A DNA stretch of 4,247 nucleotides from a virus (IMGVR_UViG_2675903481_000017), one strand, 5' to 3'; shown: positions 1,508 through 1,979, counted from the stretch's first letter. Notes: generated by a model from the letters alone, not told the origin. Translations and numbers: made by a program.

Positions 1508-1671
1508 GAACGAGTATTGATTTGGCACATAGCCTTGCTCAAATTGGAGTCAGGTTTGTGCCAATACCAGCAGAAACAGACGAAGAATTTCATACGTTAG
1601 CCACATCCCTTTCACAAAAGCTGGAAATGATGGTGGCGAAAGCAGAAGCAGATGAGAGAGACCAGGTATGA
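1480..1671 (+). CDS. orf63: Small early-left protein, 63 aa, lambda orf63-like (function unknown)
   Basis: 63 codons, with a 28-nt overlap onto the preceding ORF, as in the lambda orf60a/orf63 arrangement. A G-rich stretch (1471-1478) precedes the ATG at 1480. Acidic C-terminus (AEADERDQV). Confidence 0.65.
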   Translation: MHKASPVELRTSIDLAHSLAQIGVRFVPIPAETDEEFHTLATSLSQKLEMMVAKAEADERDQV

Positions 1672-1751
1672 CAACCACTGAATGCATTTTTCTGGCAGCG
1701 GGCTTCATATTCTGTGTGCTTATGCTTGCCGACATGGGGCTTGTTCAGTGA
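1668..1751 (+). CDS. Candidate 27-aa hydrophobic micro-protein (MTTTECIFLAAGFIFCVLMLADMGLVQ), possible single-pass membrane peptide
   Basis: Its ATG overlaps the orf63 stop (ATGA at 1668-1671), the same coupling geometry used at the bet/exo and exo/orf60a junctions. An uninterrupted hydrophobic core of about 20 residues. Below the ORF-track length cut-off. Competes with the 1682-1864 frame. Confidence 0.25.
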   Translation: MTTTECIFLAAGFIFCVLMLADMGLVQ

Positions 1752-1864
1752 CACCTCAGCAAGAAAACGCCCTTCGCAGCATTGCCCGTCAGGCTAATTC
1801 TGAAATCAAAAAAGTCAGACAGCAGTTTCCAAAAACGTCAATGACATTTGCCGTAGCGTACTGA
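1682..1864 (+). CDS. Small hypothetical protein, 60 aa (in the position where lambda carries orf61; identity uncertain)
   Basis: Open frame of 60 codons. The same frame is also open upstream from an ATG at 1652 but is interrupted by TGA at 1679-1681, immediately followed by this ATG. No convincing Shine-Dalgarno. It overlaps the alternative 27-aa frame at 1668-1751, so only one of the two is likely real. Confidence 0.4.
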   Translation: MHFSGSGLHILCAYACRHGACSVTPQQENALRSIARQANSEIKKVRQQFPKTSMTFAVAY

Positions 1865-1979
1865 AGAAGCACCGCGAAACGGTAACGCTGAAGGGATTCA
1901 CACCGACTCATTTAAGCCTGGCAATCGGCATGTTAAACGGCGTCTTTAAGGAACGATGAACATGAAAAGCAAAATTATC

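Follow-up and report, generated by a model that had tools for sequence, protein, structure and literature searches.

What is encoded directly after orf63 in the pL operon of lambdoid phages? We addressed this question in the viral sequence IMGVR_UViG_2675903481_000017, a stretch of 4,247 nucleotides (nt; hereafter the window, with coordinates counted from its first letter) that represents the exo-xis part of a lambdoid prophage. Between 1400 and 2000, the window is 100% identical to phages ev207 and PhiR63_2 and ~95.5% identical to lambda. The exo-xis block affects the lysis-lysogeny decision and the induction of Shiga-toxin (Stx) prophages, and orf61 is a studied gene there. A first-pass annotation of the window had proposed two mutually exclusive small open reading frames (ORFs) after orf63: a hydrophobic peptide of 27 amino acids (aa) and a 60-aa frame. 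The two are consecutive coupled genes instead, and only an extension of the longer frame (1682-1747) overlaps the peptide ORF. With moderate confidence, we read the locus as two consecutive, translationally coupled genes of the pL (exo-xis) operon, a 27-codon gene for a membrane-type peptide followed by an orf61 pseudogene.

A doubly overlapped hydrophobic mini-ORF

The features that make up this arrangement are the following.

1668-1751, + strand: 27-aa hydrophobic mini-ORF (MTTTECIFLAAGFIFCVLMLADMGLVQ), sharing ATGA with the orf63 stop and GTGA with the orf61 start
1748-1864, + strand: truncated orf61, 38 aa (VTPQQENALRSIARQANSEIKKVRQQFPKTSMTFAVAY), with a GTG start; matches intact Orf61 to residue 28 and is then out of frame
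between 1830 and 1831, + strand: point at which 4 nt (GGAT) of the intact 434-type allele are missing, which shifts the frame and inactivates orf61 in this lineage
1808-1813, + strand: A6 run; lambda has A7, a frameshift of its own
1831-1959, + strand: C-terminal two thirds of Orf61 (KNVNDICRSVLKKHRETVTLKGFTPTHLSLAIGMLNGVFKER, then a stop), a frame-1 remnant with no start codon of its own

Position 1668 corresponds to lambda 31008. The ATG at 1668-1670 overlaps the orf63 TGA at 1669-1671 to form ATGA (1668-1671), and the TGA that ends the mini-ORF (1749-1751) overlaps the GTG at 1748 of orf61 to form GTGA (1748-1751). The 76-nt gap between orf63 and orf61 is therefore filled exactly, with a 4-nt overlap at each end, and at both ends the upstream stop overlaps a downstream start on the same strand: orf63 -(ATGA)- 27-aa ORF -(GTGA)- orf61. 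In a survey of 152 de-duplicated loci, the second overlap was ATGA at 114 and GTGA at 37. The first-pass annotation had recognized the ATGA at 1668 and the same coupling at bet/exo (648-651) and exo/orf60a (1325-1328), as we also found; it had missed the GTG 1748 overlap, the 4-nt deletion at 1830/1831 and the survival of the Orf61 C terminus in frame 1. The ATGA/GTGA device recurs between orf61 and a downstream 31-aa ORF and at the joints of other mosaics. A weak Shine-Dalgarno (SD) sequence, UGAGAGAGA, lies 6 nt 5' of ATG 1668, and another weak, properly spaced SD precedes 1748; none was found at usable spacing before ATG 1652 or ATG 1682. As in the ATGA/GTGA termination-reinitiation coupling of phage operons, both ends of the peptide ORF use a 4-nt overlap. 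What differs here is that the space separating two larger genes is taken up exactly by a whole mini-gene, which forms a double-coupled link.

The encoded peptide is strongly hydrophobic, in agreement with the first-pass description. Its best 15-residue Kyte-Doolittle (KD) window scores 2.87, higher than in any other ORF of ≥20 aa in the window (79 in all); its grand average of hydropathy is 1.62, and its best 19-residue KD window scores 2.33. Residues 6-26 form a single hydrophobic stretch with Glu5 and Gln27 at the flanks and Asp22 near its end, so that the peptide has the size and segment length of a small single-pass membrane protein (at most 50 aa, with a membrane-spanning stretch). The frame stays open over the 76-nt gap in 51% of dinucleotide shuffles, and openness by itself is therefore unremarkable. 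Just 0.18% of the open shuffles reached the hydropathy of the peptide, however, and the joint chance of an open frame with such hydropathy is ~0.0009.

Small single-helix membrane proteins include KdpF (29 aa), MgtS (31 aa) and AcrZ (49 aa). Like these, the peptide is shorter than 50 aa, has one predicted hydrophobic helix of ~21 residues with short polar ends, lies in an operon and was missed by gene callers. Unlike them, it has no known partner and no terminal Lys or Arg, and it is unrelated to them in sequence. Type I toxin peptides, such as Hok, Ldr, TisB, Ibs and ShoB, are common in prophages and resemble the peptide in size and hydrophobic character; the peptide differs in lacking its own promoter, a long leader and an antisense RNA, and in being coupled inside a polycistronic early operon. 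We found no sigma-70-like site on either strand between 1300 and 2300 and no Rfam match, so that neither the promoter nor the antisense RNA of a type I system was found.

We propose that ribosomes ending orf63 at TGA 1669-1671 would reinitiate at ATG 1668, helped by the weak SD UGAGAGAGA. The product would be a 27-aa peptide with one membrane-spanning-type helix at residues 6-26, made from pL, which most likely would insert into the inner membrane during early lytic growth. Its translation would end at TGA 1749-1751, atop the orf61 start, supplying ribosomes to orf61; such a ribosome relay would be a second role of the 27-codon gene. In the window, the 4-nt deletion at 1830/1831 shifts the orf61 frame after residue 28 and leaves a 38-aa stub. 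The analysis establishes the anatomy, the history of the alleles, the pseudogene status of orf61, the frame-specific synonymous excess and the hydrophobicity; translation, membrane location and any function of the peptide are what we infer from these features. The mini-ORF is probably a new gene for a small membrane peptide, in a phage operon that is among the best studied.

Selection on the mini-ORF and its distribution

To compare the reading frames, we counted substitution events over 1672-1747 in 90 pooled haplotypes, which gave 22 events. In the peptide frame there were 12 synonymous, 9 nonsynonymous and 1 stop event (12:9:1, p=0.003), the single stop being Q27*, which costs the last residue only. 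Variants present in at least two haplotypes gave 8:3:1 (p=0.003). The same stretch gave 7:13:2 in frame 2 (p=0.30) and 5:17 in the third frame. The dN/dS ratio of the peptide is ~0.25, equal to that of orf61 in its own frame, while the validated orf63 is higher (~0.48). An earlier count of 56 haplotypes was equivocal between the peptide frame and frame 2 (6:6:1 versus 5:7:1), and the frames separated only with the 90 pooled haplotypes. Because the sample is shallow, support for amino-acid constraint on the peptide is moderate.

The first-pass annotation had left the choice between the peptide and the 60-aa frame to comparative alignment; over 1672-1747, the synonymous excess is in the peptide frame and there is none in frame 2. 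Its suggestion that the real product is a tiny membrane peptide is upheld insofar as the counts support the 27-aa frame as the best-supported coding frame between 1672 and 1747; the membrane location is predicted from the peptide's hydropathy.

The mini-ORF is widespread. Its ATG and 27 codons are intact at 147 of the 152 loci (~97%), the exact peptide occurs on 981 contigs, and 175 phage records carry it at ≥90% identity, including lambda, 434, 21 and Stx1/Stx2 phages. A survey of complete E. coli genomes placed the peptide locus in 3251 of 5426 (60%), and where the downstream orf61 is a pseudogene, as in lambda and 118 E. coli genomes, the ORF is still intact. As the first-pass annotation had suspected, the ORF has been overlooked: it is unannotated in every phage record inspected. 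It appears as a hypothetical protein in a small number of E. coli entries of GenBank, and the peptide sequence was not found in the searchable full-text literature. Two 428-aa proteins (P0006 and P0007, from Logan and ENA) cluster with the peptide at 90%; these may be read-through or fusion calls.

Several observations weigh against a peptide gene. The 22 events were not placed on a tree. In a six-frame control, the antisense frame with coincident wobble, which belongs to a minus-strand ORF at 1550-1735, gave 10:12 (p=0.012) and by construction shares most of the peptide signal. The module is known solely as alleles at least 95% identical in DNA, without deep orthologs: tblastn against phages returned only copies at ≥90% identity, a scan of genome contigs yielded mostly lambda contamination, and the peptide was not found after divergent orf63 alleles (70-78% identity), where unrelated genes stand instead. 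There was no significant family match in Pfam, NCBIfam, PHROGs or PADLOC. The peptide contains no Lys or Arg, which is unusual among small membrane proteins. A natural G-to-A change at 1670 (loci L072 and L086) converts the start codon of the peptide to ATA and, at the same time, the TGA of orf63 to TAA. It removes the peptide start while remaining silent for orf63, and this haplotype (2 contigs) lost the ATG without other decay. Finally, PMC8614690, a review of lambda ribosome profiling, gives extra products of 7 aa and 31 aa in the region and none of 27 aa.

Some of these points would fit a non-coding spacer, in which the open frame and the synonymous skew arose by chance in a shallow, recombining population or through selection on the antisense ORF. 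Half of the shuffles keep the frame open, the events are only 22 and uncorrected for phylogeny, the antisense frame reaches p=0.012, and one haplotype does without the ATG. Against this stands the joint rarity of openness and hydropathy. Moreover, the antisense-synonymous events are a strict subset of those of the peptide, three events are silent for the peptide alone, and one peptide-silent change abolishes the ATG of the antisense ORF. Over the two thirds that overlap orf63, the antisense frame shows no constraint (5:9:1, p=0.5); the antisense strand has no promoter-like site or usable SD, and an Rfam search of the whole window at an expectation value (E) of 1 or better gave no match. We rejected an antisense gene at 1550-1735 (- strand) as the source of the signal, which is weaker there and unconstrained over orf63, and we regard a mere spacer as improbable.

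We also considered that the mini-ORF might be translated purely as a relay to the weak orf61 start, with a functionless peptide that is degraded. The 4-nt overlaps at both ends, the weak orf61 SD, coupling as the rule in this operon and the peptide's lack of a homolog or family are consistent with this idea. So is a mosaic orf61 (locus L102) that does without the peptide by using its own SD, and the intact peptide ORF beside a broken orf61 could merely mean that the break is recent. A relay needs only an open frame, yet the peptide sequence is constrained (dN/dS ~0.25, p=0.003), its hydrophobicity goes beyond composition (0.18% of shuffles), and the ORF is kept in lambda and in the 118 E. coli genomes whose orf61 is a pseudogene. 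A relay without a working peptide is thus unlikely, and a coding mini-gene that may relay ribosomes as well is the reading that we carry forward.

The true orf61 and its frameshifts

Orf61 proper has 71 aa and three helices, and its start lies at 1748. In phage 434 the ORF is uninterrupted; the conserved part is 71 aa long (MTPQQENALRS...GVFKER), with an ATG that forms ATGA together with the stop of the 27-aa ORF. The start codon is GTG in the window and ATG in most relatives. Positions 1748-1831 and 1831-1959 align base for base with the 434 and lambda genes, and residues 1-28 of the stub match the intact protein with one change, A23V. An AlphaFold (AF2) model of the intact 71-aa protein is confident, with a predicted local distance difference test score (pLDDT) of 85.7, and has helices at 3-26, 32-49 and 54-64. 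The 38-aa stub retains helix 1 only, because the frame shifts after residue 28, and the window has no uninterrupted three-helix frame. The intact protein matches phrog_303 (E=4.7e-36), and the window locus has the position of orf61 in the exo-xis block, between orf63 and a TraR-like orf73. Frame 2 from 1748 is therefore the same gene, at the same position, as Orf61 of lambda and Stx phages (PHROG 303; 'cell division protein ZapA' in NCBI). The window copy differs in its 4-nt deletion and in having helix 1 only, and the lambda copy is broken otherwise, by one additional A.

In this phage lineage, orf61 is a pseudogene. The defect is already known: RefSeq NZ_CP033092 marks the equivalent of 1748-1959 as a 'frameshifted' pseudogene, and the literature calls the gene 'truncated'; PV340574 annotates exactly 1748-1864 as orf61. 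The 71-aa frame is kept at 126 of the 152 loci, with 17 of the lambda type and 7 of the window type. The 71-aa frame is kept in ~50 haplotypes and is broken only in two lineages, that of the window (-4 nt) and that of lambda (+1 A); among 56 orf63-anchored haplotypes, these two alone carry indels in orf61. The exact window allele is found in 118 of the 5426 complete E. coli genomes.

Upstream of 1748, frame 2 comprises two further stretches.

1652-1681, + strand: 9-codon remnant (MRETRYDNH, then a stop) matching the annotated lambda orf61 start; closed by TGA 1679-1681
1682-1747, + strand: frame-2 stretch (MHFSGSGLHILCAYACRHGACS), the N-terminal extension of the 60-aa ORF and of the annotated 93-aa Orf61

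As the first-pass annotation had described, frame 2 runs from ATG 1652 with one TGA at 1679-1681, followed at once by ATG 1682 and ending at the stop 1862-1864 (MRETRYDNH, stop, MHFSG...AVAY, stop). It had also suspected a lesion in this long frame relative to an ancestral orf61-like gene. A lesion is present, but it is the 4-nt deletion at 1830/1831 and not the TGA at 1679, which had been taken as a possibly recent or lineage-specific nonsense change. In the alignment with lambda and other lambdoid loci, codon 1679-1681 is TGA at 112 of the 152 loci and GGA at 38, so that T is the consensus; another haplogroup carries AGA and, through 1653 T>C, no longer has the ATG of the lambda-type frame. 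The wobble base of peptide Thr4 falls at 1679, and the T, G and A found there are all synonymous for the peptide. Because codon 1679-1681 is a stop in most loci, the lambda-type start is not general. ATG 1652 is probably not a functional start. The GGA of lambda, with its long annotated orf61, is a minority, unusual state.

In frame 2, the stretch 1682-1747 reads the peptide ORF out of frame, and no coding constraint is seen on it. The 60-aa ORF (1682-1864) and the 61-aa orf61 of lambda are composites of an out-of-frame reading of the peptide gene, the true N-terminal part of orf61 and a frameshifted tail. A widespread mosaic allele (P0060, 344 member sequences; L102) has the 71-aa ORF right behind a different, 250-aa gene, with its own GAGG SD, the same Met, no peptide and no extension. 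In L102, that 250-aa gene (741-1493 of the locus) has no recorded Pfam match; it takes the place of orf63 and the peptide, with orf60a on one side and orf61 on the other. Since this mosaic lacks the extension, frame 2 has no synonymous excess and no usable SD was found, the 22 codons of 1682-1747 lie outside the conserved protein. The published models, the records that start at the 71-aa Met and the insoluble over-expressed annotated orf61 lead to the same conclusion: PMC8614690 describes models of the 93-aa form that fold residues 24-93 only and place the N-terminal helix inconsistently, NCBI and curated records of phages 21 and 434 start Orf61 at the 71-aa Met, and over-expressed annotated orf61 aggregated and was insoluble (PMC6213356).

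These findings bear on the view that what is really made is the long protein of frame 2, which would start at 1682 and have 93 aa in intact alleles or 60 aa here, and would start at 1652 and have 61 aa in lambda. The 27-aa ORF would then go untranslated, as a by-product of its alternative frame. Most gene callers annotate the 93-aa form (997 contigs), PHROG 303 spans residues 1-93, frame 2 is uninterrupted after 1682 at nearly every locus, publications on the exo-xis block take this frame for Orf61, and ribosome occupancy has been reported over the lambda orf61 region (PMC6213356). The extension, however, has no synonymous excess (7:13:2) and no usable SD at 1682 or 1652, and it is absent from the P0060/L102 allele. 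Residues 24-93 alone fold in the published models, and the 71-aa form folds by itself; the over-expressed protein aggregated, and codon 1679-1681 is a stop in most loci. We consider there to be only a slim chance that the long frame is the product, and we retain the order of peptide gene and 71-aa orf61.

A different way of rescuing orf61 would be slippage on the A-run (C AAA AAA G, 1807-1814), either by ribosomes (-1) or during transcription, which would rejoin the N-terminal frame to the C terminus in frame 1 and make a 70-aa protein. The product predicted for a -1 slip has the same sequence as P0071, which is 70 aa long and encoded by the same allele with A7, and the C-terminal remnant is still stop-free. 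The heptamer, however, is not a canonical X XXY YYZ site, as the zero frame ATC AAA AAA GTC reads it as C_AAA_AAA. For the 70 nt that follow, the folding energy is -14.7 kcal/mol (z = -0.8 versus shuffles), so that neither the canonical heptamer nor the stimulatory structure of a dnaX-type programmed -1 frameshift is present. A6 is short for transcriptional slippage, and the restored A7 allele is absent from the 5426 complete genomes and occurs on one draft contig only. A living orf61 allele is very improbable on this evidence, and the heptamer, the structure and the genome counts likewise left phase variation or programmed frameshifting at the A-run unsupported.

The linker between helices 1 and 2 of Orf61 (window ~1808-1835) has been hit repeatedly and independently, by +1 A in lambda and by -4 nt in the window lineage. 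The same linker carries an insertion sequence in L104 (~250-1500), and P0071 and P0075 have compensated double indels that change ARQQFPD into SQTAVS or SDSSF. It may be a hot spot of mutation or, alternatively, a loop that tolerates change.

Behind the name ZapA stands only a Pfam match below threshold, and structure gives it no support. The Pfam family PF05164 scored 16.1 bits against a gathering cut-off of 23.8 (E=0.014) and over residues 3-35 only, no NCBIfam model matched, and a Foldseek search of the Orf61 model against the PDB gave a best E of 1.7, with no ZapA among the 50 matches listed. A homeodomain identity was likewise without structural support in Foldseek. Apparent Orf61 relatives at 51-52% identity proved to be double-frameshifted noisy contigs rather than real homologs.

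Published orf61 genetics and the neighboring genes

The annotated N termini of lambda (61 aa) and Stx-phage (93 aa) Orf61 appear over-extended. If so, the orf61 frames used in mutagenesis, over-expression, two-hybrid assays and modeling would have a spurious N terminus, and the lambda frame used experimentally would also have a frameshifted tail; both would account for the protein being insoluble and the models unstructured. Lambda and the ev207/ExPEC (extraintestinal pathogenic E. coli) prophage lineage would then be natural orf61 knock-outs of independent origins. 'orf61' phenotypes may need to be reassigned, with the peptide gene being hit in every published mutant, and if the peptide were the active product, lambda and most Stx phages would carry an unrecognized early membrane-acting micro-protein.

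The sole point mutation tested in lambda 'orf61', a 1-bp deletion, delayed phage development (PMC4195576). The deleted base is equivalent to C1719 of the window, in peptide codon Leu18. In delta-orf61 phages, the whole region is replaced by a scar and the entire peptide ORF is removed, so that all published lambda 'orf61' mutants also destroy the 27-aa ORF. Because lambda orf61 is a frameshifted stub and every published mutation also destroys the peptide gene, we tentatively raise the possibility, itself rather doubtful, that the phenotypes of lambda 'orf61' mutants (prophage induction at altered times and increased lysogenization) may be due to the 27-aa peptide and not to Orf61. The published mutant phenotypes fit loss of the annotated 61-aa product of lambda or polar effects equally well, which counts against attributing them to the peptide. 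The published genetics fit the peptide reading without proving it.

The genes called on either side of the peptide ORF and orf61 are as follows.

4-651, + strand: bet
648-1328, + strand: exo
1325-1507, + strand: orf60a
1480-1671, + strand: orf63 (DUF1382; Pfam PF07131 on homologs), with TGA 1669-1671 within the ATGA that opens the 27-aa ORF
1956-2051, + strand: 31-aa ORF (MNMKSKIIRELQAPFLLFAFTLKRINQQFRD), in ATGA overlap with the stop of the orf61 C-terminal frame

Further 3' in the window lie the TraR-like orf73, ASCH, DUF4222, xis and int, and positions 2076-2085 are 10 N (masked or unknown bases) inside the TraR/DksA-like orf73. The 31-aa ORF is uncoupled in the window, because the orf61 frameshift ends the chain at 1864. 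It contains a terminator-like hairpin (1980-1998) followed by a T-run, which corresponds to the predicted terminator t2 (PMC4195576; Bloch 2014). Phage 21 annotates a 29-aa version of this ORF as a 'putative secreted protein', and lambda ribosome profiling gave a 31-aa product here according to the review PMC8614690.

An NMR (nuclear magnetic resonance) structure of lambda Orf63 has been published (PMC10869804). The ev207 RefSeq record (NC_049949, L001) calls an orf63 of just 37 aa (the coordinates 1659-1772 and 1890-2012 are given for the record) and lays a 40-aa minus-strand coding sequence over the orf61 pseudogene (window 1789-1911, - strand). Both calls look like gene-caller artifacts that stem from the frameshift.

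Where orf63 is divergent (70-78% identity, L105-L123), unrelated genes are joined exactly at its stop, either by GTGA to an Ea22-like gene or by ATGA to a gene beginning MSKPTDEEIV... Because divergent orf63 alleles join new genes at the stop codon through GTGA or ATGA, the mosaic joints coincide with the 4-nt coupling overlaps. Lastly, lambda-identical orf63 loci were present in assemblies labeled Shewanella, Pseudomonas, Bradyrhizobium, Paenibacillus, Kitasatospora, Oceanobacillus and others (L004-L019), several of them on contigs of ~48 kb; these loci are almost certainly lambda DNA contamination.

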